From an uncultured delta proteobacterium (GTDB lineage Bacteria > Myxococcota_A > Polyangia > Polyangiales > JAFGIB01): 64,000 bases of DNA. The stretch lies in the NCBI GenBank assembly GCA_963778655.1, contig CAVZVA010000009.1, positions 906,235 through 970,234 of the forward strand, read 5' to 3'. A program made the translations under genes and the position numbers. Shown piece by piece: positions 8,300 to 55,784 of this stretch (position 1 is its first letter; each line of letters begins with the position of its first letter). The notes under the pieces were generated by a model. The model searched no databases, was not told the DNA's origin, and saw nothing but the letters and a program-made list of their open reading frames with translations.

Positions 8300-8351
8300 A
8301 TGATTGAAGCCAGTATCTCCTTCAACCCGTTCCTCCTGAGGCTTTGCTGCC

Positions 8352-10987: not shown

Positions 10988-11053
10988 GCGATTGACCGAG
11001 CGGTTGGGCCTGGCAAGATGCATGGCCGGAGCTCCCGCGGAGGAGATGCAAGC

Positions 11054-12076: not shown

Positions 12077-12091
12077 GGCGGTGCGGCGGCT

Positions 12092-34699: not shown

Positions 34700-34811
34700 G
34701 GTCTTCTCCGAAAAGGGCACCGGCCGCGCCGGCCCGGGGGCCCGACTTTCCAAGCTCTAGCACACGGGGGCCCCGGCGCGGAGGCCTGCGCGGCCTGACG
34801 GGCGGGCGGCT

Positions 34812-38845: not shown

Positions 38846-39820
38846 TCAGCGTGGGGCACGGCGCGGACCATGGATCTGGGCGCGCAGGCTTTCGGCCAGC
38901 TCCAGCATGGGTAGGCCGGGGTCGTCGGCCAGATCAGGGTCGAGCTCGGCGATCCGGCCCTGGCCGTGACACGGGCGCAGCTGCGAAAGCCCGGGCGCGT
39001 TGCAGATCGACTGCGCCATGCCGCGCCGCGTGACCAGCACGTCAGGATCCAGGCTCAATACCTGTTCGGCGTCGAGCGCAGGCCAGCCGTGGTAGCGCTC
39101 GGCCGCGTCGATGAGACCCGCGTAGTGCAACACGTCATGGTAGCTGGTACCGCGCGCGCCGCCGAACAGTTGCTTGCCGTAGAGCGCGAGGTAGAGCCCG
39201 CGCGGTCGGGCCGCGCGCGGCACGTCGCTTGCGACCGCCTTCAGCCGCTGTACGAAGTGGGTAGCCAGCGCGGCAGCGCGCTGCGGCTCGCCGACCAGCA
39301 CGCCGATCACGCCGATGGTGGGCAGCAGGGTGTCGAGGCCACCCATCTCGCCCAGGTCGAACACCACCACGCCCTGCGCGCGCAGGCGGGCCGCGTAGCG
39401 AGGGTCGCCGAAGTGGTTGATGAGCAGCAGGTCGGGGTGCAGGCTGAGGATCGGCTCGAGGTCGGCGGGCGAGTCGATGCCGGCGCGGCCGCGGTAGCGG
39501 TAGCCGAGCAGCGGGTTGTCCTTGCTGTAGCGCGACACCGCGACGATACGCTCGGGCGCGCACAGCTCCCACAGCACCGAATCGGCAACCAGGCTCGCCG
39601 ATGCGATGCGCCGATAGCGGCGAAGCGGTGCGATCGCGCTGGAGGCGTCGCGAATGCCGCGGCCGCCGCCCGGCAGCACGACCTCCGCGACCTTTGCCGC
39701 GCGCGGCTCGATCTGCTCGACCCGCACCTGGGGCTCGCGGCGGGCGCCCGCGGCGCCGAGCAAGCTCGCGGAGAGCGCCAGCAGCACGGCCACACCGTTG
39801 TGCAGGTCGACGCGGGTCAT
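38846..39820 (-). CDS. ABC transporter periplasmic substrate-binding protein (iron-siderophore/haem/cobalamin FecB-BtuF-type)
   Basis: ATG 39820 overlaps the ATPase stop (ATGA). The signal-like N-terminus is VAVLLALSASLLGAAG. The layout is typical of this binding-protein class (RIVAVS..., LEPILSLHPDLLLINHFG, GVVVFDLGE). The gene is in an operon with FecCD-type permease and ATPase genes. The ORF-track start at 40444 lies inside the ATPase gene. Confidence 0.72.
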   Translation of the reverse strand: MTRVDLHNGVAVLLALSASLLGAAGARREPQVRVEQIEPRAAKVAEVVLPGGGRGIRDASSAIAPLRRYRRIASASLVADSVLWELCAPERIVAVSRYSKDNPLLGYRYRGRAGIDSPADLEPILSLHPDLLLINHFGDPRYAARLRAQGVVVFDLGEMGGLDTLLPTIGVIGVLVGEPQRAAALATHFVQRLKAVASDVPRAARPRGLYLALYGKQLFGGARGTSYHDVLHYAGLIDAAERYHGWPALDAEQVLSLDPDVLVTRRGMAQSICNAPGLSQLRPCHGQGRIAELDPDLADDPGLPMLELAESLRAQIHGPRRAPR

Positions 39821-40602
39821 GGTTTGTGCGCGCCCCCGACCAGCCGAAACCCGAGCGCGCCGCCCGCGATCGGCTCCACACCGTACACGCGCCGCACGTT
39901 GTCCGCGGTGAGCACGGCGCTGCTGGCGTCCAGCGCCACGCTGTGGCCGTGGTCCAGCAGCAGCGCGCGGTCGGTGAAGTGCAGCGCGTCGTCGAGCTGG
40001 TGCAGAACCGCCACCACGCAGTGGCCGTCCTTGGCAAGCGCGCGCAGTGTGGCGAACAGCGACAGCGCGTGCGAGACGTCGAGCGCCGCGGTGGGCTCGT
40101 CGAGCAGCAGCACGCGCGCCTCGGTGGCCAGCGCGCGCGCCAGCAGCACGCGGCGCTGCTCGCCGGCCGAGAGCTCCGGTAGCATGCGGCTCGCCAGGTG
40201 CGTCACGTCCGCGCGTTCCATCGCGGCCTCGATCGCGAGCCGGTCGCGCGCGGACAGGCCGGCGAGCGCGCCCCTGTGCGCGTAGCGGCCGTGGCCGACC
40301 ACGGCGTAGACCGAGAGCCGGGAGGTGAGCTGCGAGCGCTGCGGGACCAGCGAAAGGCGCCGGCCCAGCTCGCGCCGGGTTAGCCGCGCGCCGTCGACGC
40401 CCGACAGCTCGATGCAGCCGCCGTGCTCGATCAGCCCGGCGCACGCGCGCAGCAGCGTGCTCTTGCCCGCGCCGTTGGGACCGAGCACGGCCAGCAGCGA
40501 GCCGAAGTCGGCGTCGAACGACACGTCGTGCAGCACCGGCGCGCGGCCGAGCGCGACGCTGACGCCGCGGGCGCGCAGCGCGGGCGGCTCAGCCATAGCC
40601 AC
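39817..40602 (-). CDS. ABC transporter ATP-binding protein (FecE/BtuD/HmuV-type)
   Basis: Motifs: Walker A GPNGAGKSTLLRA, signature LSAGEQRRVLLARAL, Walker B LLLDEPTAALD and the H-loop LHQL. The start is GTG 40602 or ATG 40596; both overlap the permease 3' end. Confidence 0.92.
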   Translation of the reverse strand: MAMAEPPALRARGVSVALGRAPVLHDVSFDADFGSLLAVLGPNGAGKSTLLRACAGLIEHGGCIELSGVDGARLTRRELGRRLSLVPQRSQLTSRLSVYAVVGHGRYAHRGALAGLSARDRLAIEAAMERADVTHLASRMLPELSAGEQRRVLLARALATEARVLLLDEPTAALDVSHALSLFATLRALAKDGHCVVAVLHQLDDALHFTDRALLLDHGHSVALDASSAVLTADNVRRVYGVEPIAGGALGFRLVGGAHKP

Positions 40603-41674
40603 CCCGGCGCCAGGTGCGCAGCAGCAGCACGAGGAAGAGCGGCGCGCCGAACAGGCCGGTGATCACGCCCAGCGGCAGCTCGGTTTGCGAGGGCACTACG
40701 CGCGCGAGCGCGTCGCAGCCGATCACGAATGCGCCGCCGCCGAGCGCCGCGGCGGGCACCAGCCGCCGGTGCTCCGCGCCGAGCACGCTGCGCAGGCCGT
40801 GGGGCACGATCAGTCCCACGAAGCCGATGTTGCCGCCGAGCGAGACCGCCGCTCCTGTCAAGGTCGCGCTCCACACCACGATCCAGCGCCGTACCGCCGC
40901 GACGTCGACGCCGAGCGAGGCCGATTCGTCCTCGCCGCTGAGCAGCAGGTCGAGCGGGCGGCCCCACAGCCAGGCAGCGATCACGCCCGGCAGCACCAGC
41001 GGCCAGGCCATCGCCACCTGCGCGCCGGAGGTGCCCGAGAGCCCGCCCAGCACGAACGCCACCATCGCGCGCGCAAGGTCCCACTTCTCCTGCGCCAGGC
41101 TCATGATGAAGTTGCCGAGGCCCAGGAACAGCGACGACAGGATGAAGCCGGTGAGCAGCAGCAACACGAGGTCGCCGTGCTGGCGCGCGATCACCAGCAG
41201 GATCCCGAGCGCGAGCAAGGCGCCGAGCAGGCAGCCCACGGGCAGGAAGAGCTGCGCGGGTAGGACCGCGCCGAGCGCACCCGCAGGCAGCGCCTGATAC
41301 AGCATCATCGTGGCCTGGCCGCCGAAGCTCGCGCCCGCGGTGGCGCCGAGCAGCGAGGGGTCGGCCAGCGGATTGCGGAACAGGCCCTGCACCACCACGC
41401 CCGCCACGGCCAGCGCGGCCCCGGTCAGGAAGGCCGCCAGCAGGCGGTAGCCGCGCAACTGCAGTAGCGTGTCGCGCAGCCGCGGGTCGTGCAGGTCGCC
41501 GTGGCCGGCCAGCAAGCCCGCAACGCACGCGGCTGCGAGCGCGAACAGCAACGCCGCGTATACGCGCGCGGTGCGCGAGCTCTGCGCTGGCGCCAGAGCC
41601 GCAGCCTCCGAGCCCGCGCTGGCCGTGCCTTCCAAGATGGGCCGCAAAATGGTGCGAGCCTGCAAGCCTGTCAA
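40589..41674 (-). CDS. ABC transporter permease (FecCD/BtuC family)
   Basis: The 361-aa polytopic protein has FecCD-family hallmarks as remembered: LLLTGFILSSLF, GNIGFVGLIVPHGLR and ELPLGVITGLFGAPLFLVLL. Confidence 0.88.
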   Translation of the reverse strand: MTGLQARTILRPILEGTASAGSEAAALAPAQSSRTARVYAALLFALAAACVAGLLAGHGDLHDPRLRDTLLQLRGYRLLAAFLTGAALAVAGVVVQGLFRNPLADPSLLGATAGASFGGQATMMLYQALPAGALGAVLPAQLFLPVGCLLGALLALGILLVIARQHGDLVLLLLTGFILSSLFLGLGNFIMSLAQEKWDLARAMVAFVLGGLSGTSGAQVAMAWPLVLPGVIAAWLWGRPLDLLLSGEDESASLGVDVAAVRRWIVVWSATLTGAAVSLGGNIGFVGLIVPHGLRSVLGAEHRRLVPAAALGGGAFVIGCDALARVVPSQTELPLGVITGLFGAPLFLVLLLRTWRRGGYG

Positions 41675-41699
41675 GCGGCCGCAGCCCGCGCGGGCAGCA

Positions 41700-41742
41700 G
41701 GCCACGGCGCCGCAGCCCGCGCACGGGCGGGGCGCCGTGGCC
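41700..41742 (-). terminator. strong GC stem-loop between the DUF2330-like gene and the ABC importer operon
   Basis: A perfect 12-bp inverted repeat pairs ggccacggcgcc (41700-41711) with ggcgccgtggcc (41731-41742). The 19-nt loop can itself form a 5-bp inner stem (gcccg/cgggc). On the minus strand it lies about 30 nt after the stop at 41774. No U-tract follows, so its function (terminator or processing site) is uncertain. Confidence 0.3.
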
Positions 41743-41773
41743 TGCGCCCTCGCAGGCCGTCAGAACCAGTGCG

Positions 41774-43615
41774 TCAGAACCGTCGCCGCCGGATCAGCGC
41801 CGCCAGGGCGAGCAGCAGCAGCGAGCCGCTGCCACCTGCCTCCGGTAAGCCGCCGCCGACGTTGCAGCCGCCGCTGTGCGCGACGCTGCTGCCGCTCTTG
41901 CCGCCGTCGTCCACGCCGGCATCGCTGGTGCCACCGCTCGAGCCACCGGAGCCGGCGCTGCCGCCGCCGCCGCTCTTACCGCCCGTGCTGCCGCCGCTCG
42001 TGCCGCCCGTGCCGCTGTCGGCTGTGCCGCCATCGCTGGTGCCGGCGCCGTTCTGCTTGAGCATCGCGACGATCATGTCCGTGCGATCGTCGATCACCTT
42101 GCCCTGACCCTGCTTGCCGTACTGCAGGATCTTGAGCGCCGCGGGCTGACTGTCGATCATGATCGGCCAGGTCCCGATGGTCGTGCCGTGCACCTCGCCG
42201 CCCTGCGGCAGCACGAGCCGCCACGGGCTGTTGGATGTGCCGCCGCCATTCCCGCACTCGATGTAGAAGTCGGCGGTGTGGATGTTGCTGACGTCGCCGA
42301 GGTCGGAGTTGAAGTCGAAGGCGGGATCGAGGGTCATCTCGGCCGCGCTCATCGTGGTGTACAGGCGCGTGATGTAGGGGCGCGAGTCGAGCAGCGCCTG
42401 GGTATCGGCCAGCGGCTTGATCACCATCTCGTAGAGCTTGGTCAGGAAGGTCTGGGTGTCGAAGGTCACGCCCGCCGCGTTGATGTAGCAGGATAGACAG
42501 CGCTGGAAATCCGAGAACGCGATGTTGCTGGGCAGCGTGACCGAGGCCTGCAGTGCGTCGTTGAAGCCGTCGTAGTTGCCAAACATGTTGGTGGCGTCGC
42601 GGACCATCGAGGCCGCGTCGGTGTAGCTCGTCGCCTGGAACTGATTCCACTGCTGCTGCTGGTAGCCGGCGAAGATCTGGACGCCCGTGTTGTTCACCAG
42701 ATCAGAGACCTTGCCCGCATACTCGGTCACGAAGCCCTGGCCCATGGCCTCGTCGGCAGCCTTGCTCACGACCTCGTTGTAGTTGTTGTTGGGATTGAAC
42801 CAGTCGATCAGCGCCTCGTTGAGCTCGAGCGCCTTGTAGTTCTCCGGAATCGCGCGCGCGTCCGACAGCACCCACACCAGCACGCCCATGTCGTCGTTGG
42901 CCGCGACCGCGGTGGGCCTGATCGGAATCGACGGCAGCGCCGAGTCATAGGTGATCATGACCGGGCGGATCGAGCCGGTCATGTTGCCCTTGCTCAGCTT
43001 GAACGCGAGCAGGTTGAGCCCGTCTTCGAGATAGGGGCGCAGCACCACGTCGCCCATCGGGCCCACGTCGTAGCTGTGCGCGGTGAGCCAATCGACCGCG
43101 ACCTGGGCCGCGTCGCTCGCTCCGGGGTCGACCATGATGACGTCGTAGTCATAGGGACCGACCGCACCGGAAGCCACCACCGTCACTGCGGGCGCAGACG
43201 CGGCCCCCCCCGTGCCCGAGGCGTTGCCAAATCCGACCGCACCGGTTGCCATCGGCACCGCGCAGCTGCCATCGAACATGGTCTGCCGGGTGTACTGGGG
43301 GTTGGTCGCCTGCTTGAGCGCCTGGAAGGCCGAGTCCGAGGAAACCGCGACCGTCGGGTTGCCGGGCACCGGCAGCACCCAGGCGAACTTCTGCGACGGC
43401 CCGTCGTACATGATCTGGATCACCGCGGTCACCGTGCCGTCCGCGTTCTTCGAGAACACAATCTGTTCGGCGGCCTGGTTGACCGGATTGGCCGCGGAGC
43501 AGAAGAAGCCGCCGCAGGCCTTGGCCGGGCTCGGCGCCATCGCAATTGCAGCCGCGGTCAGGCCGGCCAATGCCGCGCCCACCCATGCGAACCCCTGTGG
43601 TCGTTCGAAGCGCAT
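41774..43615 (-). CDS. DUF2330-like secreted protein with a MYXO-CTERM-like C-terminal sorting tail
   Basis: ATG 43615 lies 7 nt after GGGAGAG. The signal peptide is followed directly by the ACGGFFC motif that I associate with DUF2330. The C-terminus has a Gly/Ser-rich spacer and then HSGGCNVGGGLPEAGGSGSLLLLALAALIRRRRF, that is, Cys, a hydrophobic helix and an Arg cluster. The 1114-aa ORF-track version adds 500 aa of Arg-rich shadow sequence antisense to 43862-45235. Confidence 0.75.
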   Translation of the reverse strand: MRFERPQGFAWVGAALAGLTAAAIAMAPSPAKACGGFFCSAANPVNQAAEQIVFSKNADGTVTAVIQIMYDGPSQKFAWVLPVPGNPTVAVSSDSAFQALKQATNPQYTRQTMFDGSCAVPMATGAVGFGNASGTGGAASAPAVTVVASGAVGPYDYDVIMVDPGASDAAQVAVDWLTAHSYDVGPMGDVVLRPYLEDGLNLLAFKLSKGNMTGSIRPVMITYDSALPSIPIRPTAVAANDDMGVLVWVLSDARAIPENYKALELNEALIDWFNPNNNYNEVVSKAADEAMGQGFVTEYAGKVSDLVNNTGVQIFAGYQQQQWNQFQATSYTDAASMVRDATNMFGNYDGFNDALQASVTLPSNIAFSDFQRCLSCYINAAGVTFDTQTFLTKLYEMVIKPLADTQALLDSRPYITRLYTTMSAAEMTLDPAFDFNSDLGDVSNIHTADFYIECGNGGGTSNSPWRLVLPQGGEVHGTTIGTWPIMIDSQPAALKILQYGKQGQGKVIDDRTDMIVAMLKQNGAGTSDGGTADSGTGGTSGGSTGGKSGGGGSAGSGGSSGGTSDAGVDDGGKSGSSVAHSGGCNVGGGLPEAGGSGSLLLLALAALIRRRRF

Positions 43616-43861
43616 TCGTGCTCTCCCTTGCATCCCGGTGTACCCGGGGCTGGGCCACGCCCTGTGGCACAGCCTGGCACAGCCCGCACCCAATCCTCCA
43701 AGCATACTGCAACCCCCATGCCAGCGCCCCGGCCGGCCTGAACCGCCCTGAGACAGGCGAACATACCGAAACAGTTCCGGGTTTCGCGCCTCGCAGCCGA
43801 TTGTCATCATCCGGCAACGGGCCGGTTTGGGGTCCGAGCCGCGCCGGCGCGGGAGGCGTTC

Positions 43862-45235
43862 ATGGAGGGAACCCAGAAGCTCCGCCCAGTGGGCGTGTCC
43901 GTTTCGGGACGCCTCACCGGGCCCCTGGTGATCGCCGGGTTTGTGCTCGCCGCAACCTGCGCCTACGTCGCGCTGGCGCTGCGGCCGCAATGGGCGGCTG
44001 CGCTGCGCGCCGCGTGGGACGGCGTGCTGCAAGCCGGCCGCGGCGGCGTCTGGATCCTGCCGCTGCTGGCCGCTGTCGCGGCAGTGCTCGGCGTGGTGCT
44101 GGCCGCGTTCCTGCTGTCGGCGTTCGTGCGCGGCGTGCAAGCGGCGCCCTATGCGTGGCTGGCGCCGGTGCTGGTCGGCTTCTCCAGCTTCGTGCTGGCG
44201 CGCATGCGCATCGACCTGCCGCTGGGCCCCGTTCCGGCGCCGCTGTTCGCGACGCTGAGCGGGTTGCTGCTGCTCGGCGGCGGTGCGCTGGCGCAAGTGC
44301 GCGGCTGGCCTGCCAAGCTCTCGGGAGCGCTTGCGCTCGGCTTGCCCCTGCTGCTGCTGGGCTGCGCCTACGCGCGCGCGGGCGGCGGCCTGCTGCCGGC
44401 CTGGCGCGCGCTCGACCCGACCGCGGGTCTGTTTCTGTTCGTGCTCGGCTTGACCAGCGTCGGCGTGGCGCTGGTGGCGGCGGTGGCCCGTCCTGCCGGC
44501 CCGATCGGCGAGGCGGCCCAGCGCGCGCGCAGCTGGCGCGAGCACAGGCAGCAGCTGGCGCAGGCGCTGAACCACGCGCGCGAGAGCGAGCTGCGCGCGG
44601 CCGAAGCCGAGCGCCGCGCCGAGCTCGCCGAGCACGCGTTGCAGGCGGCGCATGCGGTGGCGGCTCGCGCGCCCGCGTTCGGGCACGGGGAAGACACCGG
44701 GCGATTCATGGCGCTCGCGCGGCCGCCGCTCTTGAGCCGCACCGCCCGGCTGTGGATCGGTGCGCCGCTGCTGCTGGTCACGGCCTTGCTCGTCGCGTAC
44801 CTGGCGGCCTATAGACCGCTCGCCCGGCGCGCGGCCGCGCAGCAGGTGTTCTCGACCGAGAGCGCCAAGGAGCACGCCGAAGAGATCGACGCGCTGCGCA
44901 AGCGCTTCGCAACGGAGCGCCAGCACCTGTACGAGGCGCTGGCCGCCGAGCGCGCCCACAGCGAGCAGCTGCTGCAGCAAGCGCGCGAACAGGCGGCGAC
45001 GCAGCCGGCGCCGAGCGCGGAGCGGACCCCTGCGGCGGTAGCGCCGGAAGTGGCGAGGCCCGTGGCCAGGGCTGTCAGGCACGCGACCAGGGCGAATGGC
45101 CGGCACGCGCGCCGCCATGCGGCCAGGAGCCGAGCGCGCACGCGCACGCAGCCCGCGAAGCGCGAAGCGGCCCAGCCGCGCGAGTCGGGCGAGACCCTCG
45201 ACGACGATCCGATCGGCGGCCTCGAGGGCATGTAG
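43862..45235 (+). CDS. hypothetical membrane protein with a coiled-coil/charged C-terminal half
   Basis: ATG 43862 lies 5 nt after GGAGG. About six hydrophobic helices occupy the first 210 aa. Next come Ala/Glu/Arg-rich helical segments (ESELRAAEAERRAELAEHALQAAH), one more TM helix and a basic tail. I recognise no family. Confidence 0.6.
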   Translation: MEGTQKLRPVGVSVSGRLTGPLVIAGFVLAATCAYVALALRPQWAAALRAAWDGVLQAGRGGVWILPLLAAVAAVLGVVLAAFLLSAFVRGVQAAPYAWLAPVLVGFSSFVLARMRIDLPLGPVPAPLFATLSGLLLLGGGALAQVRGWPAKLSGALALGLPLLLLGCAYARAGGGLLPAWRALDPTAGLFLFVLGLTSVGVALVAAVARPAGPIGEAAQRARSWREHRQQLAQALNHARESELRAAEAERRAELAEHALQAAHAVAARAPAFGHGEDTGRFMALARPPLLSRTARLWIGAPLLLVTALLVAYLAAYRPLARRAAAQQVFSTESAKEHAEEIDALRKRFATERQHLYEALAAERAHSEQLLQQAREQAATQPAPSAERTPAAVAPEVARPVARAVRHATRANGRHARRHAARSRARTRTQPAKREAAQPRESGETLDDDPIGGLEGM

Positions 45236-45253: not shown

Positions 45254-48200
45254 CTACTCGGCCGCGCTTTCGCCCTCTTCGGCGATCCGCTCGTCGTGCT
45301 CGGCCGCGGGCTCGCCGTGCACGGCCACGCCGCTCTCCGCCCTGCGCGCGAACCCACTGCGCCCAGGCACGTGGATGCGCACTCGGCTGATCAGCGGGTG
45401 CGAGGAAGGGCGCTCGATCACGGCGGGCTCGGCGCGCTCGAGCTTGCGCTTCGGGAAGTCCAGCCAGTGGCGCTCGCGTTGGAAGGGATAGCTCGGCAGC
45501 GTGAGCTTGGCGCGCGGGTAGGGCGCGTCGAACGCGCGCCAGTCGATCTCGGCGCCGCGCGCGTAGAGCTGAGCTAGCGTGCCGAGCAGCGCGGCCCAGT
45601 CGTCGCCGCTTGCGCAGAGGGAGGGCAGGGCGAGCTCTGCAGGCCCCGGATCCGCGGCCGCCGCGGGGCCGAGCTCGAGGCAAATGTCCGCGTGCTCGCC
45701 GATCAGCGCCGGCACGCCGCCGGCTGCGGTGGGCTCGTGGTAGAGCTGGCGCGCCCAGTGCTCGGTGTTCGGCAGCTCGCCCGGCGCGAGCCAACCCCCG
45801 CGCCACGCGCTGGCCAGCGGGAGCTCGGGCGCTGCGTACTGAGCGGCGTCCAATGCGACGCGCAGCCCATGTACGGTCAGGCGCTGCGTGGCGCCCGGCG
45901 CCAGCCCTTCGAGCACGACCCCGCGGCGGGTCGCGAGCACCAGCGCCTGCTCCCACGACATCGCGCCTGCGGCGGCAGCGGCCGCGTATTCGCCCGCGCC
46001 CGAGCCGTAGACCGCGCTCGGCTCGAGCCCCCAGCTGCGCCACAGCGCGTGCAGCGCGTAGTGCAGCGCCAGAAGCGCGGCGTGGCCGTAGCTCGGACGG
46101 CAGAGCAACGCCGCGCGCTCGCTCTGGGGCGCGTGGTAGAGCGCGTCGAGCAGCGGGTGTTCCAGCTCCTGGGCAAGCACACGGTTGCAGTGCTCCAGGC
46201 TCTGGCGCAGCCGAGGGTGGGCCTGCCACAGCGCCAGGGCGGCACCGGGCGACACCACGCGCTGTGGAAAAGCGAACGCGACGCGCAGGCGCGCGCCCGG
46301 CTTGAGCACGCCGGCGTGCACGCCCGGGGCAGGCGCGCCGCCGGCGAAACGCTGCAGCGCTTCGCGCGCGTCGGCGGCATCGGCCGCGCTCACCCCCAGG
46401 CGGTGCGCGAAGTGGCTGCGGCCCACGCCCGCGGTGAAGCAGTAGTCTGCGAATAGCTCGGGCGGCGCGTGGGCCAGCGCGTGCCGCGTGCGCGCCGCGA
46501 GCTGGGACAGGGCTGCGGGCGTGCGCGCCGACAACACCAGCAAGTGGCGCGGCCGCTCGTGGTCGCAAGGGTGCACGCGCGCCGCGGGCGCCTCGCGCAG
46601 CACCACGTGTGCGTTGGTGCCGCCGAAGCCGAACGCGCTCAGCCCGGCGAAGCGCGGGCGCTCGCCGCGCCGCCAGGGCACGGCCAGAGTGGGGATCTCG
46701 AGCGGCAGCGCGTCGATGCCGATGTCGGGGTGCACGTCCCGCAGGTGCAAGTGAGGCGGGATCTCGGCGTGGTGCAGCGCCAGGGCGACCTTGATCAACG
46801 CGACCATACCGGAGGCGGCTTCGAGATGCCCGACGTTGGTCTTGGCCGAGCCCACCAGCAGCGGACGGCCCGGCGGGCGCCCCGCCATCACCTCGCCGAG
46901 CGCGCGCAGCTCGACCGCGTCGGCCACCGGGGTGCCCACGCCGTGACACTCGACGTAGTCGATCTCGTCCGCGCTGACCTCGGCCGAGCGGAGCGCCTGC
47001 TGCAGCAGCGCCTGCTGCGAGCGGCCGTTCGGCGCCAGCAGGCCGTTGCTGCGGCCGTCGTGGTTGACCGCGCCCCCCGCGAGCAGCGCGTAGACGCGGT
47101 CGCCGTCCGCCAGCGCGGCCGACAGCGGCTTGAGCACCACCACTCCGGCGCCCTCGCTGCGCACGAATCCATCCGCCCGGCTGTCGAAGCTCTTGCAGCG
47201 GCCGTCGCGGGATAGGGCGCGCGCGTGCGAGAAGTACACGCTCGCCTCCGGCGCGAGCACCACGTTGACGCCGCCCACGATGGCAAGCTCGCAGTCTAGC
47301 TCGCGCAGGCTGCGGCAGGCGTGCTGCAGCGCGACCAGCGAGGACGAGCAGGCGCTGTCGACGGTCTCGCTCGGACCCTTGAGGTCGAGGAAGTACGAGA
47401 GCCGGTTGGCGACGATGCTGGGCGCGTTGCCGGTGCCGTAGTCGGCGTCGATCATCTGCAGGTCGCCGCCATACAGCAGGCTGTACTCGCTGCCGCACAC
47501 GCCCGCGAACACACCGGTGGCGCTGCCCGCGAGCGCGGTGGGCGCCTGGCCCGCGTCCTCGAGCGCCTCCCACGCGACCTCCAGGAACATGCGCTGCTGC
47601 GGATCCAGGCGCGCCGCCTCGTGCGTGGAGATGCCGAAGAAGGCGGCGTCGAACGCATCCACTCCCTCGACGAAGCCGCCCCACTTGCTGCACATCTTGC
47701 CGCGGGCGCCGGGCTCGGGATCGTAGAGCGCGTCCGCGTCCCAACGCTCCGGCGGCACCTCGCTGATCGCATCGACCCCGTTGCGCAGCAGCTGCCAGAA
47801 GCCCTTGAGGTTGGGTGCGCCGGGGAAGCGACAGGCCATGCCCACGATCGCGATCGGCTCCTGTGCCCGCGCGCGCGCCCGCTGGCGCGGCGCGCGCACG
47901 GCCGGCGCGGAGGGCCGCGTGGCGGCGTCGCCGCCCGACAGAGCGCGCGCGAGATCGGCGATGGTCGGGTTGTCGTACGAGATGGTCGCGGGCAGCTGCG
48001 TGCCGAGCCACTGCTGCAGCTCCTCGGTCAGCTCGGCGGCGAGCAGCGAGTCCACGCCGTAGCGCGCGAGCGGCTCGCGCGGGTCGATCTCGCCGGCGTC
48101 GCGCTCGAGCTTCTCGGCCAGGCGCTCGCGCAGCCACTGGACGATGCGCTGCTCGCGCTGAAGCGCGGTCGGCCGGGTGAGCGTGCGAAACGGGGGCGCA

Positions 48201-50071
48201 TCGTCGCCGCCTTGGCTCTGTTCGACGGTTCGAGGCGGCGGTGCGTCGGCGCTGCGCTGCGGCCGTTCGCTCCAGCGAGGCGACGGCAGAGAGCCCGCTG
48301 AAGGCGCGGAGCTCTGGTCGCGCCCCCGGTCGGCACCCGCGAGCTGCCACGACGCCACCACCTGCAGGTCGCCGGCGAGGTAGGCCTGCCTGGTCGCGCG
48401 CCGCTGCACCTTGCCGCTCGAGGTTTTCAGCATGCTGCCGCGCTTGATCAGCACCAGTGCGGCCGGCGCCAGGTCGTGCGCCTCGCGGATCGCCTGCGCC
48501 GCGCCCCGCAGCAGCGCGTCCTGATCGGCGCCCAGCCGCTTGTCGAGCTCCTGCACCACCACCAGCTGCTCGCCCAGCTCGCCGTCGACGGAGAACGCCG
48601 CGCCGGCGTCCGCCACCAACGCCGCGTGCATGTCCTGCACCGTGCGCTCGATGTCCTGGGGGTAGTGGTTGCGCCCGCGCACGATGATCAGGTCCTTGAG
48701 CCGGCCAGTGATGAACAGCTCGCCCTCGTCGAAGAACCCGAGGTCGCCGGTGCGCAGAAAAGGCCCCTCGTGCGTATCCGCGGTGTGCGCGCGAAAGGTC
48801 CGCTCCGTCTCCTCGGGTCGATTCCAATACCCGAGCGCCACGGACCGGCTCTGCACCCAGATCTCCCCGACCCGCCCTTCCGGCAGCGTGCACAGCGTGT
48901 ACGGGTCGACGATCAAAATGCGCTCGTCGAGCAACGCATGCCCGCACCCGACCAGCGTGCGGGTCCGTGGCGCGGATTCGGACGGGCCGGCGACGCGCGC
49001 CGCGTGCCCCTGCTCCAGCTCGCCGGCATCATATGCGCGCACCAGAGGAGGCGACGCCGGATCGCCGCCCGAGATCATCAGGGTCGCTTCCGCCATGCCA
49101 TAGCAGGGGTACATGGCTTCGCGCCGCAGCCCGTGCGCGGCGAAGGCATGCGCGAAGCTCGCGATGGTCGAGGGTTTGATCGGCTCGGCGCCATTGCAGA
49201 CCACGCGCACCGAGGTGAGGTCGAGACCGACGCGGTCCCTGGCATCGATGCGGCGTAGGCACAGGTCGAAGGCGAAATTGGGAGCCATCAAGACGCTGGC
49301 CCGGTGGTGTTGGGCAGCGACAAGCCAGCGCTTGGGGCGGCGCACGAACGCCTGGGACGGCATCAACACGGCTCTGCCACCGACGTACAGCGCTTGGAAG
49401 ATGCCGCCCATCAGCCCCATGTCGTGGAACGGTGGCAACCAGCTGAGAAAGACGTCGTCCGCGGTCGTGGTGCTGCCGGCCCGGATGATCTCCTGGCCAG
49501 CGAGCAGCTGAGCGTTCGTCAGCAGCACACCCTTGGGCTCGGAGGTGGATCCCGACGTGTACTGGAGAATGGCGGGCCGCTCCGGCGCGGCGCCCACCAC
49601 GACGCCGCCCAAGGCGTCGCCCTGGACCGCGCTGGAGACGTCGACCAACGCGATCTCGCCGAGCGGGCGCTCCGCGTCTGCCGCCCAGCGCGCGCGCAAC
49701 TCACCGGTAGTCAGCGCGCTCTGCGCGCCCGAGTCCTGCGCGATCGCCCGAATCCGTTGCCAAGCCCGAGCCACGCCGCCTTTCCCCGGTGGGTATGCAG
49801 GCACCGCGATCGCGCCGGCGTACAGGCAGCCGAGCAGGGCGACGACGTAATCGAGGCCCTCCGGGCAGAGCACTAGCACGGCGCGGCCTTCTGCACCCAG
49901 CGAGATCAGGGCGGCACCTGCGGCCCGCGCACGCCGGTCCAGCGAGGCGTAGGTCAGCTCGACCGCCGCCGTAGCGGCTGAGTCGAGAAACGTATACGCC
50001 ACGCGATTGGGGTGCTGGCCGCTGTGCCGCTGCAATACGTCCAGCAGGGATTCATCAACAGCGACAGCCAT
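45254..50071 (-). CDS. hybrid loading/PKS module: fatty acyl-AMP ligase (FAAL) - ACP - KS - acyltransferase-like domain lacking the catalytic Ser
   Basis: FAAL motifs: ILQYTSGSTSEPKGVLLT, WLPPFHDMGL and LRTGDLGF. ACP: ARYGVDSLLAAELTEEL. KS: IAIVGMACRFPGA, DSACSSSLVAL (Cys codon 47348-47350), ECHGVGTPVADAVE and NVGHLEAASG. The AT-like region reads ...HAALLALHYALHALWRSWGLEPSAVYGSGAGEYAAAAAAG, with GSGAGE (45989-46006) where GHSxGE is expected. No carrier domain follows the AT-like region. Confidence 0.88.
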   Translation of the reverse strand: MAVAVDESLLDVLQRHSGQHPNRVAYTFLDSAATAAVELTYASLDRRARAAGAALISLGAEGRAVLVLCPEGLDYVVALLGCLYAGAIAVPAYPPGKGGVARAWQRIRAIAQDSGAQSALTTGELRARWAADAERPLGEIALVDVSSAVQGDALGGVVVGAAPERPAILQYTSGSTSEPKGVLLTNAQLLAGQEIIRAGSTTTADDVFLSWLPPFHDMGLMGGIFQALYVGGRAVLMPSQAFVRRPKRWLVAAQHHRASVLMAPNFAFDLCLRRIDARDRVGLDLTSVRVVCNGAEPIKPSTIASFAHAFAAHGLRREAMYPCYGMAEATLMISGGDPASPPLVRAYDAGELEQGHAARVAGPSESAPRTRTLVGCGHALLDERILIVDPYTLCTLPEGRVGEIWVQSRSVALGYWNRPEETERTFRAHTADTHEGPFLRTGDLGFFDEGELFITGRLKDLIIVRGRNHYPQDIERTVQDMHAALVADAGAAFSVDGELGEQLVVVQELDKRLGADQDALLRGAAQAIREAHDLAPAALVLIKRGSMLKTSSGKVQRRATRQAYLAGDLQVVASWQLAGADRGRDQSSAPSAGSLPSPRWSERPQRSADAPPPRTVEQSQGGDDAPPFRTLTRPTALQREQRIVQWLRERLAEKLERDAGEIDPREPLARYGVDSLLAAELTEELQQWLGTQLPATISYDNPTIADLARALSGGDAATRPSAPAVRAPRQRARARAQEPIAIVGMACRFPGAPNLKGFWQLLRNGVDAISEVPPERWDADALYDPEPGARGKMCSKWGGFVEGVDAFDAAFFGISTHEAARLDPQQRMFLEVAWEALEDAGQAPTALAGSATGVFAGVCGSEYSLLYGGDLQMIDADYGTGNAPSIVANRLSYFLDLKGPSETVDSACSSSLVALQHACRSLRELDCELAIVGGVNVVLAPEASVYFSHARALSRDGRCKSFDSRADGFVRSEGAGVVVLKPLSAALADGDRVYALLAGGAVNHDGRSNGLLAPNGRSQQALLQQALRSAEVSADEIDYVECHGVGTPVADAVELRALGEVMAGRPPGRPLLVGSAKTNVGHLEAASGMVALIKVALALHHAEIPPHLHLRDVHPDIGIDALPLEIPTLAVPWRRGERPRFAGLSAFGFGGTNAHVVLREAPAARVHPCDHERPRHLLVLSARTPAALSQLAARTRHALAHAPPELFADYCFTAGVGRSHFAHRLGVSAADAADAREALQRFAGGAPAPGVHAGVLKPGARLRVAFAFPQRVVSPGAALALWQAHPRLRQSLEHCNRVLAQELEHPLLDALYHAPQSERAALLCRPSYGHAALLALHYALHALWRSWGLEPSAVYGSGAGEYAAAAAAGAMSWEQALVLATRRGVVLEGLAPGATQRLTVHGLRVALDAAQYAAPELPLASAWRGGWLAPGELPNTEHWARQLYHEPTAAGGVPALIGEHADICLELGPAAAADPGPAELALPSLCASGDDWAALLGTLAQLYARGAEIDWRAFDAPYPRAKLTLPSYPFQRERHWLDFPKRKLERAEPAVIERPSSHPLISRVRIHVPGRSGFARRAESGVAVHGEPAAEHDERIAEEGESAAE

Positions 50072-50465: not shown

Positions 50466-53400
50466 ATGTCCGAGGATCGAGACCGACCTGCAGGCGCGCC
50501 GCCCCCGCGCAAACACCGGCACGACGCGGACGCGCCGTCGTTCATAGAGCTGGAGTGCGACGTAGCCCGCGCTGCCCTCGCCCTTCCCTCCGATGCACAC
50601 GGGCTGCTGGCGCTCGCAATCGCGCTCGATGCCGTGGCGGCCGGGGTGGCCGAAGTGCTCGGTATGCCCAAGGACTTGGCTTGCATCGACGTGGCGCCAG
50701 CTCTGTTCGAGCCGGGTGTGGTGACATTGAATGTCGGCGTCGACGTTCTCGAGTCCACCTTTCTCGTCAAGGCGAGTCGCGCTGGCGCGGGAGGGGAGCA
50801 ACTCACGATCGCCGCAATGGGCCGGCTCGAGGATCCTCGCGCCGCAGGCATCCCGCGCTTATCCATGATCCTGTCCCGCACCGGCGGGACGGTCGCGATC
50901 GAGCTCGACGCCGTCAGCAACGAGGGCCCCGGCGCCGAGCTCATCGCGCTGGAGCGAGCGTTGAGGCTCGCCGGAGAAGCCGCCGGATCCACGACGCGCC
51001 CGTGGGCACGGCCCGCGCACATCGCGCGGTTTTCGCAGGCGCCCAACCGGGCCGCGGTGGTCAGCATCCGCGCCGTGGCCGTCGAGCCCAACATGGCGTG
51101 GGTCACGTTGTTGGACGCGGAAGGAGCGCCGGCCGCTACCCTCGAAGGAGTCGACTTTGGCGATTCAGCAAGCGGGCGACAGGCCCTGCCGGCCCTGGTG
51201 ATGGAAGTCGCGCGCGCGACGCTCGGTGAGGCATTCGGCCCGAACGACAATTTGGTGCGCGCGGGCCTGGGGTCATTGGACATCCTGCGTCTGCTCGACG
51301 CGATCGAACACGCCTTCCACAGGCGCATCGGTCGTAACGCGTTCCTGCGTGACCCCACGCTCGCCGGTCTCGCGGCGTTGTGCGAGCTGGAAGCCTGCGC
51401 CGATCCCGCGTTCGACGCGCGGCTTTCCGAGGGGGAGCCGCGTCCGGCCCGCGCTGTCCCACTCACCACGGCCGAACGCCATCTGTGGCTGTTGGAGCAG
51501 AGCGGCACCCTCGCTGGAACCTACAACGAGCTGATCGTCTTTCGACTCGACGGCCGTCTCGACCGCGATGCTCTTTCAGCCGCGATGGCACAGGTCGTCC
51601 ACCGGCACCCTGGACTTCGCTCCGGGTTCCACGCGGAGGGCGCAGAGTTGCTGCGCAACGCGCTCATCCGGGCGATTCCCGACAGCCGGTTCCATGACTT
51701 CGCCTCGCTCGACCCGGAGGCCGCGCAACGCGCGGCGACCTCAGCCATCGCGGCCCACGCGTGTGAGCCGTTCGACCTGCACCGCGGTCCCCTGCTGCGC
51801 TGGATCAGCGTCAGGATGCCTGACGCCACGGATCTGCTCGCGCTGGTCGCTCATCATCTGGTGATCGACGAGTGGTCTCTCGGGAGGGTGCTGCTACCCG
51901 AGCTGTGCGACTTCTATCGTTTGCCCGCCGACGTACGACCGGAGCCCTCGCCAGCGCCGGCGAGCCTGCCCGACCGGGCGGCGCGCGAGGAAGCGTCCCG
52001 GACCGGATCGGCCTACGCGGCCTCGCTGGCTTGGTGGACGCGGTACCTGGACCAGGCGGTACAGCCTCTGCAGCTGTCGGCGGCTGCAGCGGCCGATGAG
52101 GGCGCCGGCTACGACGGGCACGTGGAGACATTTCCTCTGGACCCAGCTGCCATACAGCGGCTCGGTGCGCTTGCGAGGTCGGCGGGCGCAACACCGGCAT
52201 CCGGCGTCATGGCTGCATTGCAGCTCGTGCTCAATCGGCTGTGCGAGGAGGAGGTCTTCTGCATCGGCGTCTTCTGCGCCGGGCGAGATCTCGTCGCCGA
52301 CGCCGGCGAGGTGGGGTATTACGCCAACCTACTTCCCGTCCGCGCTGATCTGAGGGGCGAGCCGAGCGTCGCGGAGCTCATCGCGCGCGTGCACGAGAAT
52401 ATGAGCGGCGTGCTCGCCCATTCGAGGGTGCCCTTTGCCGAGATTGCGCAAGCGGCGCGCCGCGCTGGTGGGTCGTCTTCTGCCGCGGGGCTGGTGCAGG
52501 TGGTCTTCGCCCAGGACGATCTCCCCGACCGGTTGGAGCTAGGCTCTCTGCGGGCGACGCGAATCGGCCTGGACAAGGGGCGTGCCAAGTTCGAGCTCAC
52601 CGTCACCACGCGGCTCGGCGGTGCCGCCCGGGCGCCGACCATGACGTGGGAATACCGCACCGGCATCCTCGACGGCGACAGCGTACGGAGGCTCGCCCAG
52701 TTGCTGGGGGCCTCCATCGATTGGATGTCCAAGAACCCGGAAAGCTCGATCTCGAACGTCGAGCTGCTCAGCTCCCGACAAGCCTCGGCCGTGATCGCGC
52801 GCGGTTCGGGACCGCAGAGCGCCCTTCCGCTCAAGCGTGTGTCGCAGATGATTGTCGAACAGGCAGCCTGCACCCCCGACGAGATTGCGGCCGTCTCGCA
52901 CGCGAAGAGCCTTTCGTACCGAGACATTGAGAGGGGCAGTCGGGCGCTTGCGGCTGCTGTCCATCGAGCCGGCGTGCGGCCGGGCAGCTTCGTGGGCGTT
53001 GCGTTGGAGCGTGGGGTCGAGCTGCCGATGGCGCTTCTCGCCGTCCTGCGCGCGGGTTGTGCCTATGTTCCACTCGACCTGGACCAACCGCCCGATCGTT
53101 TGCGGTGGATCGTTCGGGATGCAGGCGTCAGCGCCGTGCTTTCGTCTGGTGGCAGCGCGCGGCGGACGCTCTCGGAGCTGATCCACGTGGATGTCCCCGC
53201 CGGCGTTGTCGAGGAAGAGTTGCTTCCTCTCGACGAGGGGCAACTCTCGATCGAGGACGTTGCGTATGCGATCTACACCTCGGGTTCCACCGGACAACCA
53301 AAGGGGGTGCTGGTCAGACACGCGGGAGTTTCGAACGTGTTTCACGGTGTCGCGGAGCGCTTGGGGCGGCACGAGTCCAGCGTTTGGCTCGCGGTCACGA

Positions 53401-55784
53401 GCCTTGCGTTCGACATCGCTGCTCTCGAGCTGCTGTGGCCGCTGTGTTTCGGAGGGGTCGTCGCTGTCGATCCGGGACTCGCCGCCGACCAGCCGGACGC
53501 GCAGGATTGGCCCGGCCGGCTCGCGGAGGTGGGCCTTCCGCAAGGAGTCACGCACCTGCAGTGCACTCCGACCGGCCTCGCAATGTTGCTTCGCACGGCC
53601 GAGGGCCGTGCGCTGTTGCGCGGCGTGCGCGAGCTCATGATCGGCGGTGAGGTCCTTTCTCCGGCGCTCGTCGGGCGAGCGCGCTCCGCCGGCAGCGCCC
53701 GGATCTGGAACATGTACGGGCCCACGGAGACGACCATCTGGTCCTCGATGCACGAGGTGGGTCGGGTGGAAGGCCCGGTTCCCATCGGGCTTCCGCTGCG
53801 CAACACGCGGTTCTACGTGCTCGATCGCCGCGGCCGCCTAGCGCCCGACGGGCTGCCTGGAGAGCTCTGCATCGCAGGCAGAGGCGTGGCCAAGGGCTAC
53901 GTCGGGCAGCGGCCCGAGGGCGATTCGGTCTTCGTCCGAGATCCGTTTCAGCCAGGCGCGAGCGGGCCGATGTACCGAACCGGCGATCGAGTCCGATGGA
54001 ATGCGGACGGCGAGCTGGAGTTCCTCGGTCGCTACGACGGCCAGATCAAGATGCGCGGGTTTCGAATTGAGCCCGCCGAGATCGAGGAGGTTTTGCTCCG
54101 GCACCCGTGCGTGAGGCTGTGCGCGGTGGTCGTCCACCGACTTGCTGGCCGTGACCAGTTGGTCGCGTTCGTCGAGTTGCAGCAACCAGGCGTCGAGCTC
54201 GGCGAGCTGCGCCGGCATGCGGAGGGGTTTCTGCCTCGCTACATGGTCCCTCATGCATTCGTGGTTCGCGATGCGTTGCCGACACTTTCGAGCGGCAAGA
54301 TCGATCGCAAGAGCCTGGCGCTCGCAGCCCCAGATGCGACGCGATCCATCGTCCACCGGGAGCCGGCCACGGCACTCGAGGCGGCGCTGCTGCGGATTTG
54401 GAGAGAGGAGCTCGTTGCGCCGGCGGTCGGCGTCGACGAGGACTTTGCAGACGCAGGAGGCGACTCGCTGCTCGCGCTACCGTTGCTCGCCCGTCTGCGC
54501 AGCGAGCTCGGACAAGCAGTCACATTGCCACTCCTTCTGGAGAACCCGACGGTGGCGAAGCTCGCGATGGCTCTGGAACGAAGTGCTCGTATCGGGCCTG
54601 AAGCATCGTCTATGGCCCCCGGCGATGCGGTGGGAACGAGGAGCAATGCGAAGATTCTCGACAGGGCGCTTGACCAAGGGCTAGACGGGCCGGTGATTGC
54701 CGCCGCCTTGGCCACGGTTCCGGACGCAATGCTTCCTCACGTCGCGGACGCGAGCTGGAGAGGTTCTCCGATGTGGGTCGCATCCCTGCACACGGATTGG
54801 GGAACGCTGGCGCTCCTGACCCTGCCTGTCGCTGACTCCGAGGTCTACGACGAGCGCGGGCGGCTCCAGGCGCGATGCCAGGATGCGCTCGTGCTGGCTT
54901 CGGAGCTCGGGGCCAAGACGGTGTCGCTCACCGGGCTCACGGCCTCTGCCACGGGTTACGGCCGTTTGCTCAGTGTGCCCGACGAGCGCATCAAGATCAC
55001 GACTGGGCACGCGACCACCTGCGGTGCGGTGGTTCTCACCCTCGCTGGACTGCTGCGAGAGACGGGTCGCCGCATCGACGAGGAGAGGCTCGCCATCGTC
55101 GGTTTGGGCTCCATGGGGCATGGTGTCATGCGCCTGCTACTCGCGCTGGGAATGCATCCCAAATCGCTGGTGCTGGCGGATACGCCGGCGCGAGCATCCC
55201 GTCTGCTGAGAATCGAAGCGGAAGCCAGAAGCCTGGGCTACCTCGGCGAAGCGATGTGCTGCTCGGCCGGAGCGCACGCCAGCCACAAGATATATGCGGC
55301 GACCGCGGTCGTCGGAGCAACGAACGTCGGCGGAGTCCTCGATGTTGCCCGCTTGCCAGCGGGTTGCCTGGTCGTAGACGACTCCGCACCTCACTGCTTT
55401 TCGGTCACGGCCGCGTTCGAGCGCATGAGAGTGCAGAGGGACGTTCTGTTTACGGGCGCAGGCGTGTTGCGCTGCCCGGAGCGCGTCGGGATCAAGGTGA
55501 GCCCGAGCTGGCCCGACCGCTCAGGGCACTCGATCGTCGCCGCCTTCGGTCCGGCCGCCGAAGAGATTCCGGCTTGCATGTTGTCGAGCCTGATGACGAC
55601 GGTGGCGCCTTCGGAGGCGGTGGCCACCGTCGGCGAGGCGCAACTCGAAGCCTTGCTGGGCCATTACCGATGGCTGACTGCGCATCACGTCGGGCACGCC
55701 TCGTTTCACCTTCAGAGCCAGGCTATCGCAACCGCGGACCTCGTCGAGTTCGCCCGCAGATTCGGACACCGGCTGGTCCTCTGA
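50466..55784 (+). CDS. NRPS module with an N-terminal unknown domain and carrier protein: X - ACP - C - A - PCP - acyl-ACP-reductase-like terminal domain
   Basis: Carrier 1: LVRAGLGSLDILRLLDAIE (Ser codon 51273-51275). C domain: HHLVIDEWS (51852-). A domain: YAIYTSGSTGQPKGV, NMYGPTETT, YRTGDRVRW and GRYDGQIKMRGFRIE. PCP: DAGGDSLLALPLLARL (Ser codon 54465-54467). The C-terminal ~400 aa has ITTGHATTCG, the Rossmann segment IVGLGSMGHGV, and IPACMLSS (Cys codon 55575-55577). Confidence 0.88.
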   Translation: MSEDRDRPAGAPPPRKHRHDADAPSFIELECDVARAALALPSDAHGLLALAIALDAVAAGVAEVLGMPKDLACIDVAPALFEPGVVTLNVGVDVLESTFLVKASRAGAGGEQLTIAAMGRLEDPRAAGIPRLSMILSRTGGTVAIELDAVSNEGPGAELIALERALRLAGEAAGSTTRPWARPAHIARFSQAPNRAAVVSIRAVAVEPNMAWVTLLDAEGAPAATLEGVDFGDSASGRQALPALVMEVARATLGEAFGPNDNLVRAGLGSLDILRLLDAIEHAFHRRIGRNAFLRDPTLAGLAALCELEACADPAFDARLSEGEPRPARAVPLTTAERHLWLLEQSGTLAGTYNELIVFRLDGRLDRDALSAAMAQVVHRHPGLRSGFHAEGAELLRNALIRAIPDSRFHDFASLDPEAAQRAATSAIAAHACEPFDLHRGPLLRWISVRMPDATDLLALVAHHLVIDEWSLGRVLLPELCDFYRLPADVRPEPSPAPASLPDRAAREEASRTGSAYAASLAWWTRYLDQAVQPLQLSAAAAADEGAGYDGHVETFPLDPAAIQRLGALARSAGATPASGVMAALQLVLNRLCEEEVFCIGVFCAGRDLVADAGEVGYYANLLPVRADLRGEPSVAELIARVHENMSGVLAHSRVPFAEIAQAARRAGGSSSAAGLVQVVFAQDDLPDRLELGSLRATRIGLDKGRAKFELTVTTRLGGAARAPTMTWEYRTGILDGDSVRRLAQLLGASIDWMSKNPESSISNVELLSSRQASAVIARGSGPQSALPLKRVSQMIVEQAACTPDEIAAVSHAKSLSYRDIERGSRALAAAVHRAGVRPGSFVGVALERGVELPMALLAVLRAGCAYVPLDLDQPPDRLRWIVRDAGVSAVLSSGGSARRTLSELIHVDVPAGVVEEELLPLDEGQLSIEDVAYAIYTSGSTGQPKGVLVRHAGVSNVFHGVAERLGRHESSVWLAVTSLAFDIAALELLWPLCFGGVVAVDPGLAADQPDAQDWPGRLAEVGLPQGVTHLQCTPTGLAMLLRTAEGRALLRGVRELMIGGEVLSPALVGRARSAGSARIWNMYGPTETTIWSSMHEVGRVEGPVPIGLPLRNTRFYVLDRRGRLAPDGLPGELCIAGRGVAKGYVGQRPEGDSVFVRDPFQPGASGPMYRTGDRVRWNADGELEFLGRYDGQIKMRGFRIEPAEIEEVLLRHPCVRLCAVVVHRLAGRDQLVAFVELQQPGVELGELRRHAEGFLPRYMVPHAFVVRDALPTLSSGKIDRKSLALAAPDATRSIVHREPATALEAALLRIWREELVAPAVGVDEDFADAGGDSLLALPLLARLRSELGQAVTLPLLLENPTVAKLAMALERSARIGPEASSMAPGDAVGTRSNAKILDRALDQGLDGPVIAAALATVPDAMLPHVADASWRGSPMWVASLHTDWGTLALLTLPVADSEVYDERGRLQARCQDALVLASELGAKTVSLTGLTASATGYGRLLSVPDERIKITTGHATTCGAVVLTLAGLLRETGRRIDEERLAIVGLGSMGHGVMRLLLALGMHPKSLVLADTPARASRLLRIEAEARSLGYLGEAMCCSAGAHASHKIYAATAVVGATNVGGVLDVARLPAGCLVVDDSAPHCFSVTAAFERMRVQRDVLFTGAGVLRCPERVGIKVSPSWPDRSGHSIVAAFGPAAEEIPACMLSSLMTTVAPSEAVATVGEAQLEALLGHYRWLTAHHVGHASFHLQSQAIATADLVEFARRFGHRLVL

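Follow-up and report, generated by a model that had tools for sequence, protein, structure and literature searches.

Organization of the locus

We analyzed a stretch of 64,000 nucleotides (the window) of contig CAVZVA010000009.1, positions 906,235 to 970,234, from an uncultured delta proteobacterium (GenBank assembly GCA_963778655.1). The subject is a polyketide synthase (PKS) gene with a degenerate acyltransferase (AT) domain. The gene, located on the minus strand at positions 45254-50071, specifies a protein of 1605 aa in an uninterrupted open reading frame (ORF) with a coding-type GC content at third codon positions (GC3) of 0.90. Pfam and NCBIfam matches gave the following domain order: fatty acyl-AMP ligase (FAAL), acyl carrier protein (ACP), ketosynthase (KS), KS-AT linker, AT-like domain, post-AT linker and a short tail. 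There is no ACP after the AT-like domain within the same protein. A gene for a nonribosomal peptide synthetase (NRPS) is transcribed divergently from the PKS gene. Coordinates of all these features are collected in Table 1.

A first-pass annotation, made by reading the sequence, had drawn attention to the AT-like domain. The plus strand of the region it covered gives a stop-ridden translation and was rejected in favor of the minus strand. Overlapping ORFs of 1290 and 1114 aa were also rejected as high-GC shadow frames with Arg/Ala-rich nonsense translations.

Loss of active-site residues and of the lid subdomain

The Acyl_transf_1 profile (PF00698) matched aa 1277-1394 of the PKS (48.7 bits, cutoff 32.7, E 1e-12), the match covering only positions 14-128 of the 319 in the profile. 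When solved structures were searched with phmmer, the best match was the CurL KS-AT didomain (4mz0, E 2e-62). These scores, both far above chance, bear out the similarity to PKS ATs noticed on first reading.

The CurL alignment came in two pieces, in which query residues 1-288 correspond to CurL 410-717 and query residues 302-431 to CurL 802-937. Within it, GSGAGE stands column for column over the GHSVGE of CurL. The elbow codons are GGC TCG GGC GCG GGC GAA; Gly1358 (GGC, codon 45998-46000) is in the column of the nucleophile Ser, and the codon before it is TCG (Ser1357) where His is expected. Both replacements had been read correctly in the first-pass annotation. The GQGSQ oxyanion-hole motif is lost as well. 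Its aligned place is taken by FAFP-QRVV (aa 1266-1273, 46253-46276), the string previously named as its counterpart, which lies just past position 46260 where the domain had been taken to end.

Between the two pieces, 84 residues of CurL (718-801) face 13 residues here (aa 1396-1408). In FabD-type ATs this segment is the ferredoxin-like small subdomain together with the His of the HAFH motif; lid and His are both deleted in the window protein. The failure to find a HAFH- or YASH-type motif on first reading is thereby accounted for: the segment that holds it is missing along with the small subdomain. LASAWRG (aa 1419-1425), then cited as the closest string, does appear shifted by about 40 aa because the HAFH region and the small subdomain are deleted, but it is not the HAFH equivalent, since it aligns with the P-x-V/I-S-x-x-T-G segment that comes after the HAFH helix in canonical ATs. 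The core that is left has 207 aa, compared with about 290 aa, by our own estimate, for a canonical AT core. The domain had been described as structurally retained; this holds for the large alpha/beta subdomain but not for the lid.

No alternative conserved Ser/His pair was found in the AT-like domain in the family alignment described below. Ser1357 of the GSG string is replaced by Ala in all six close orthologs (YGAGAGE) and, farther away in the family, by Y, Q, R, E or D, and the sole His at the deletion junction (TVHGL) is Arg in the orthologs. Neither the profile nor the structural alignment brought a Ser and a His into positions suited to catalysis. Because the Ser is changed to Gly, the lid and the catalytic His are deleted and the GQGSQ motif has decayed, the domain is predicted to be unable to take malonate from malonyl-CoA. 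The earlier proposal that it is catalytically dead is thus strongly supported by the alignments and by the structural model.

Predicted fold

Structure prediction had been suggested as a check on the first reading. An AlphaFold2 model of aa 735-1560 of the PKS, built on an alignment of 75 sequences, had a mean predicted local distance difference test score (pLDDT) of 94.2 and a predicted template-modeling score (pTM) of 0.93. Foldseek placed this confident model on KS-AT didomains, and its superposition on CurL 4mz0 gave a template-modeling (TM) score of 0.89 when normalized to the query and 0.82 when normalized to the target. In the model the helix that follows the elbow passes through a short loop directly into the helix that normally comes after HAFH. 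With the lid absent, only half of the substrate cleft is left, while the KS, the linker domain, the large AT subdomain and the post-AT linker are predicted to be kept as a unit. Judged by alignment and model together, the AT-like domain would be a relic with neither Ser-His chemistry nor an AT cleft.

The same architecture in a family of KS-AT proteins

Relatives were gathered with the last 498 aa of the window PKS; 106 were returned and 75 sequences were aligned. The nucleophile Ser is absent in 52 of the 75, query included, being replaced by Gly in 46, Asp in four, and Ala and Arg in one each. The elbows of the Ser-less relatives read YGAGAGE, MGYGVGE, IGDGDGE, FGAGAGE and others, with the consensus G-x-G-x-G-E. 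The distance from the elbow to the YPFxR motif is 89-191 residues (median 174) in the Ser-less sequences and 247-264 in relatives with a canonical GHSxGE, so that the ranges of the two groups do not overlap; it is 172-173 in the window protein, depending on the counting origin. The lid deletion was found in every Ser-less relative that could be measured for it (48 relatives). The KS Cys-His-His triad is kept in 29 of the 31 relatives that have the AT-like domain and a complete KS.

Many of these relatives are free-standing KS-AT-like proteins of about 800 aa, and their genes stand in several types of neighborhood. One consists of FAAL, fatty-acid desaturase, ACP and KS-AT-like genes, a set that resembles the JamABC cassette. 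A second has FAAL, ACP, a CylC-like halogenase, KS-AT-like protein and ACP; a third has a KS-AT-like protein and an ACP, then a phosphopantetheinyl transferase (PPTase) or an alpha/beta hydrolase. A Kitasatospora genome has NRPS genes and a KS-AT-like gene and then genes with Pfam families that we read as an FkbK/J/I/H set; on our reading, a set of this type would build an extender on its own ACP. The theme shared by these neighborhoods is a type I KS working with unfused carrier proteins.

Two metagenomic loci carry minimal cassettes (L018, 10001-14516; L023, 8001-12043) composed of a KS-AT-like protein and an 81-aa ACP with no other PKS parts around. They continue either with a PPTase and an uncharacterized 303-aa protein or with an alpha/beta hydrolase.

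Three loci (L004, L012 and L013) have the FAAL-ACP-KS order of the window PKS, yet their ATs are canonical with GHSxGE. The existence of such relatives means that the relic is most simply derived from a working AT built into the module (cis-AT).

Orthologous loci

The window PKS is alone in its 90%-identity cluster. Six ortholog fragments (P0001-P0006) are 49-55% identical to it, and AVYGxGAGEYAAAAA is invariant among them. In a scan of genome contigs, one true two-gene ortholog locus was found (L003, from a metagenome-assembled genome), the other loci in that scan having canonical GHSxGE ATs. L003 shows the same divergent layout, with a 1514-aa FAAL-ACP-KS-AT-like protein facing an NRPS of 1806 aa; the elbow of its PKS reads LGQGVGE and its KS triad is intact.

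Identity between the window and L003 proteins is highest in the KS (69%), the most conserved domain of the window PKS, and comes to 58% in the post-AT linker, 57% in the ACP, 53% in the FAAL and 45% in the KS-AT linker. The AT-like domain has the lowest value, 30%, with gaps. No other folded part is under so little constraint, as would suit a scaffold better than an enzyme; a recent pseudogene is ruled out.

A second locus, L029, has a closer ortholog (FAAL 59% and KS 75% identical to the window PKS). Its divergent partner (375-5786, minus strand) is a PKS instead of an NRPS, with the order X-ACP-KS-AT(canonical)-ACP-R, and this partner's own AT could serve both ACPs. One type of initiation protein thus appears, by gene content, to pair with different downstream partners.

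The partner NRPS

The 1772-aa NRPS comprises an N-terminal region (aa 1-245), a carrier domain (247-305), condensation (330-774) and adenylation (798-1278) domains, a peptidyl carrier protein (1307-1367) and a reductase-like domain (about 1430-1770). This last part, a Rossmann-type domain of about 340 aa (54753-55775, plus strand), matches PDB entries 9e4s/9e4x (E 1e-51), whose title is "amino acid adenylation domain protein"; our literature search found no paper for these entries. The domain is neither a thioesterase (TE) nor a standard NAD_binding_4 reductase. A further match, in NCBIfam, is to the N-terminal part of PigE, for which thioester reduction has been demonstrated (PMC8341465). No ketoreductase (KR) was found with Pfam in the window pathway. 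As the partners constantly begin with X-ACP, the N-terminal ACP of the NRPS would complete the module started by the KS and AT-like domain.

The C-terminal tail and a possible split dehydratase

After YPFQRERHW, the PKS tail carries the motif HPLISRVRIHVPG, in which H, P, L, R, V and R are invariant among close orthologs; the L003 counterpart is DHPLLQRMTSTPG. The motif resembles the first strand and the His motif (HxxxGxxxxP) of PKS dehydratase (DH) domains. The N-terminus of the L003 NRPS, in turn, matches the Pfam family PKS_DH_N only from profile position 13, positions 1-12 being absent, and also matches PS-DH; the ORF of this NRPS cannot extend further upstream. The sites compared were 45362-45400 (minus strand) in the window, and 10778-11008 and 849-6269 (minus strand) in L003. 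Taken together, a DH-like strand on the PKS tail and an NRPS dehydratase lacking its first strand make it seem that the dehydratase is split over two divergently encoded proteins. This suggests that the PKS and NRPS may dock by strand complementation.

The N-terminal 245 aa of the window NRPS (50466-51200, plus strand) had no Pfam match and nothing in a word-indexed search, and retrieved only itself among 1.84 billion representatives. BLAST gave no significant match between this region and the N-termini of the L003 and L029 partners; the rest of the window NRPS is 36% identical to its L003 ortholog. A single-sequence AlphaFold2 model was unusable (pLDDT 41), its order of helices and strands being compatible with a double hot-dog. 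We regard the region as probably an extremely diverged DH-like one.

Neighboring genes

A gene for a 457-aa multi-pass membrane protein with a coiled coil and a basic tail (43862-45235, plus strand) runs convergently toward the 3′ end of the PKS gene; its product matches no Pfam or NCBIfam family. A convergent gene of this kind, with 39% identity, is kept on three short orthologous contigs (L021 3046-4512, L024 1444-2859 and L025 2273-3685), and by this linkage its product may belong to the PKS pathway.

Upstream in window coordinates, 39817-43699 (minus strand) encodes a DUF2330 protein with a weak MYXO-CTERM sorting signal, then a FecCD permease and an ABC ATPase. The sorting signal points to a myxobacterial source, and the transport genes suggest that an operon for iron or siderophore-type uptake adjoins the PKS. 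The locus is flanked by three large Ser/Thr protein kinases fused to a STAND/AAA_16 NTPase, of about 1300-1430 aa, encoded at 24262-28560 (plus), 34761-38669 (plus) and 55862-59755 (minus). At 371-3583 (plus) there are genes for a FabF-like KS, a second, degenerate KS (resembling a chain-length factor, with a weaker Pfam match) and a short-chain dehydrogenase/reductase; this is a separate set of the type II fatty acid synthase/PKS kind without an AT. Rhamnose, sugar-transferase and polysaccharide-export genes come after it (4254-16313).

Table 1. Positions of the features described, in the window unless another locus is named
Feature	Position	Strand	Evidence
Fatty acyl-AMP ligase, aa 14-572	48356..50032	-	Pfam AMP-binding and AMP-dom_DIP2-like; top NCBIfam matches all FAAL families
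ACP1, aa 645-711, GVDSLL, Ser675	47939..48139	-	Pfam PP-binding, E 1.5e-16; motif position
Ketosynthase, aa 738-1110, Cys908/His1043/His1082 intact	46742..47860	-	Pfam ketoacyl-synt, E 2e-95; motifs DSACSSS, ECHGVGT, TNVGHLE
KS-AT linker domain, aa 1111-1262	46286..46741	-	Pfam KAsynt_C_assoc, CurL-like_PKS_C, RhiE-like_linker (matches aa 1115-1245); high-confidence model
AT-like core, aa 1263-1469, RVAFAFP...CLELGP, 207 aa, large alpha/beta subdomain only	45665..46285	-	Partial Acyl_transf_1 match, two-piece CurL alignment, family alignment, AlphaFold2
Degenerate elbow GSGAGE, aa 1356-1361, at GHSxGE position	45989..46006	-	CurL alignment, codons
Deletion junction, aa 1396-1408, 13 residues against 84 in CurL	45848..45886	-	Break in CurL alignment, 717/802; gap shared by 48 measurable relatives
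Post-AT linker, aa 1470-1536, ending in LPSYPFQRERHW	45464..45664	-	Aligned to CurL 802-937; 58% identity to L003 ortholog
Tail motif HPLISRVRIHVPG, aa 1558-1570, candidate docking element	45362..45400	-	H/P/L/R/V/R columns invariant in orthologs
Divergently transcribed NRPS, 1772 aa	50466..55784	+	Pfam; PDB 9e4s/9e4x, NCBIfam PigE; same layout in L003
NRPS N-terminal carrier domain, GLGSLD	51204..51380	+	Pfam PP-binding, E 8e-8; aligned to L003 carrier; L029 partner also starts X-ACP
KS-AT-like genes with FkbH/I/J/K and O-methyltransferase (Kitasatospora), FAAL-desaturase-ACP, or FAAL-ACP-CylC-like halogenase sets	L001 10001-16631; L002 6896-12484; L017 6891-12442; L019 487-7748		

Discussion

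With a probability that we put at about 0.75, the AT-like domain is a scaffold-only AT0 relic of a cis-AT in a lipo-initiation module whose carrier is malonylated in trans. A clean deletion would have removed the lid with the catalytic His, the Ser would have changed to Gly and the GQGSQ motif would have decayed, leaving the large subdomain and both linkers. This remainder may have been kept because the block of KS, linker, AT and post-AT linker is one structural unit, which would hold the KS dimer together and form the cleft in which the carrier docks. In solved cis-AT structures, for example the cross-linked complexes of DEBS module 3, the ACP in elongation mode sits in the cleft between KS, linker and AT.

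The window PKS would then be the first half of the module. The FAAL would adenylate a fatty acid and load it onto ACP1, from which the acyl chain would move to the KS. The partner carrier would be the one at the N-terminus of the divergent NRPS; it would receive its malonyl group in trans, the likeliest sources being the housekeeping FabD and an AT encoded elsewhere. The KS would make a 3-oxoacyl thioester on this carrier, the NRPS would join an amino acid to the 3-oxoacyl group, and reductive release at the end of the NRPS would yield an aldehyde. The PKS gene, an orphan with a single-member sequence cluster, would belong to a two-gene pathway of the lipo-amino-aldehyde type, probably a myxobacterial one.

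Several observations weigh against this reading. No trans-AT was identified in the 64-kb window: tblastn with four canonical ATs and a scan for the GHSxGE motif found no second AT in any frame, Pfam found none among the neighboring ORFs, and the choice of FabD is an assumption. The N-terminal carrier of the NRPS reads GLGSLD and not the usual GxDSL. The carboxylate-binding Arg, about 25 residues past the nucleophile, is kept (LATRRG aligned to LVxxRG) and is invariant in orthologs, which is odd for a pure scaffold; in active ATs this Arg binds the malonyl carboxylate. Conservation within the AT-like domain peaks at the nucleophile elbow; a structural explanation of this suffices, and a binding role is possible too. 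Finally, an intact KS triad does not prove elongation, and ClyE, the closest published analogue, belongs to a module proposed to be non-elongating.

ClyE (NocP) of the chlorosphaerolactylate/nocuolin locus has the architecture KS0-AT0-DH-T, with an AT that lacks the active-site Ser and a DH without a KR. Its AT0 is short, annotated at aa 543-769, and the authors read it as evolutionary degradation; ClyE stands between a FAAL/ACP pair and an NRPS, and its products have no C2 extension (PMC7923214). In the window, likewise, the KS might only pass the fatty acyl group from ACP1 to the NRPS carrier without any extender. The parts are in the same order as in the ClyE line, no AT is encoded in the window, and a DH-like region would be pointless after elongation since there is no KR. 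The KS itself argues the other way. The ClyE KS has lost an active-site His, whereas Cys908, His1043 and His1082 are all present here and the triad is found in L003 and in nearly all the relatives examined; an acyl shuttle would need the Cys only. No other domain of the protein is as well conserved as the KS. By its motifs the KS appears to have everything needed for decarboxylative condensation. The first-pass annotation had named extender loading in trans and a KS that does not extend as the two consequences of a dead AT, and both are live options, the ClyE precedent showing that the second does occur. The intact and conserved triad favors the first, and we rank trans-loaded elongation ahead of a ClyE-like shuttle, which we consider unlikely.

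It is very improbable that the AT-like domain is still an enzyme, using another nucleophile such as Ser1357 or having an active site rebuilt for hydrolase or transferase activity. The conserved LATRRG Arg and elbow and the confidently predicted fold of the large subdomain might be cited for this, and the Arg by itself confers no activity. Ser1357 and the junction His vary as described above, no member of the class has the lid, which makes up half of the substrate cleft, and the AT-like domain is the fastest-evolving part of the PKS. Poor conservation of the region and the single-member cluster might likewise point to a decaying pseudogene, or to assembly errors behind the Ser-to-Gly change and the deletion, but this is scarcely credible given a frame unbroken over 1605 codons with coding-type GC3, the same elbow and deletion in independent metagenome and genome sequences of 30-55% identity, highly conserved catalytic domains, a confident fold prediction and conserved synteny.

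Three known systems come closest to the window PKS. As judged from the published description, ClyE shares with it FAAL/ACP priming, a KS, a short Ser-less AT and then a carrier domain and NRPS. It differs in that its KS lacks a catalytic His and its module is proposed to be non-elongating, while the window KS has its triad intact and conserved. In cly, the FAAL and the ACP stand as proteins of their own and KS-AT0 continues into DH-T, whereas here FAAL, ACP, KS and AT-like domain form a single protein, with the putative DH-like region and the carrier on the divergent NRPS. Release in the window pathway would be by a reductase domain like the N-terminus of PigE and not by a TE.

With CurL 4mz0 and DEBS modules 3 and 5 the window protein has in common the KS, the linker, the large AT subdomain and the post-AT linker with YPFxRxRxW; unlike canonical cis-AT modules, it lacks the small subdomain, Ser, His and GQGSQ, and has no ACP following the AT in the same protein. 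Trans-AT PKSs include modules that are split between KS and DH and carry a DHD docking region at the C-terminus; at these junctions the KS is without the flanking subdomain, and the DH, as described, is complete (PMC9113145). The likeness lies in an extender that would come from outside, a module split between a KS and a putative DH-like region on the next protein, and a conserved C-terminal tail after the KS block. The differences are that those enzymes keep only the linker (flanking) subdomain while the window PKS keeps the 207-aa large AT subdomain, that no trans-AT gene is present in the window, and that the tail has a dehydratase-like HPLxxR...PG motif.

Two further candidates for comparison were discarded. 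NocG of nocuolin, considered as an AT-independent KS, is an unrelated enzyme of the KAS III/PpyS type, and the reedsmycin "AT0" is a label for a loading-module AT.

Inactive AT0 relics have already been described in FAAL-primed PKS-NRPS lines, as ClyE shows. What goes beyond the literature that we reached is the uniform lidless G-x-G-x-G-E architecture in about 50 diverse KS-AT-like proteins with intact KS triads and, possibly, the split dehydratase. For annotation the consequence is practical. Labeling such proteins KS plus Acyl_transf_1 would mispredict a self-sufficient cis-AT module and its substrate; the proper call is AT0, with the extender to be sought elsewhere.

With its shared lid deletion, its change of Ser to Gly and its preserved KS triad, the lidless family represents a minimal KS scaffold found in nature and a visible step from cis-AT to AT-less modules. 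In PKS engineering it could help to choose the points at which an AT domain can be trimmed and the KS left intact. Tentatively, and as a view that we hold less likely than its converse, the lidless GxGxGE relic may be no product of random decay but a stable, widespread non-catalytic class that keeps the carrier-docking cleft of the KS, to which the clade of the window PKS may add docking of the subunits through a split DH. If this is true, the GxGxGE class would be a fixed intermediate between cis-AT and trans-AT systems, in which the KS elongates on free-standing or partner ACPs loaded by FabD or by FkbH-type systems.

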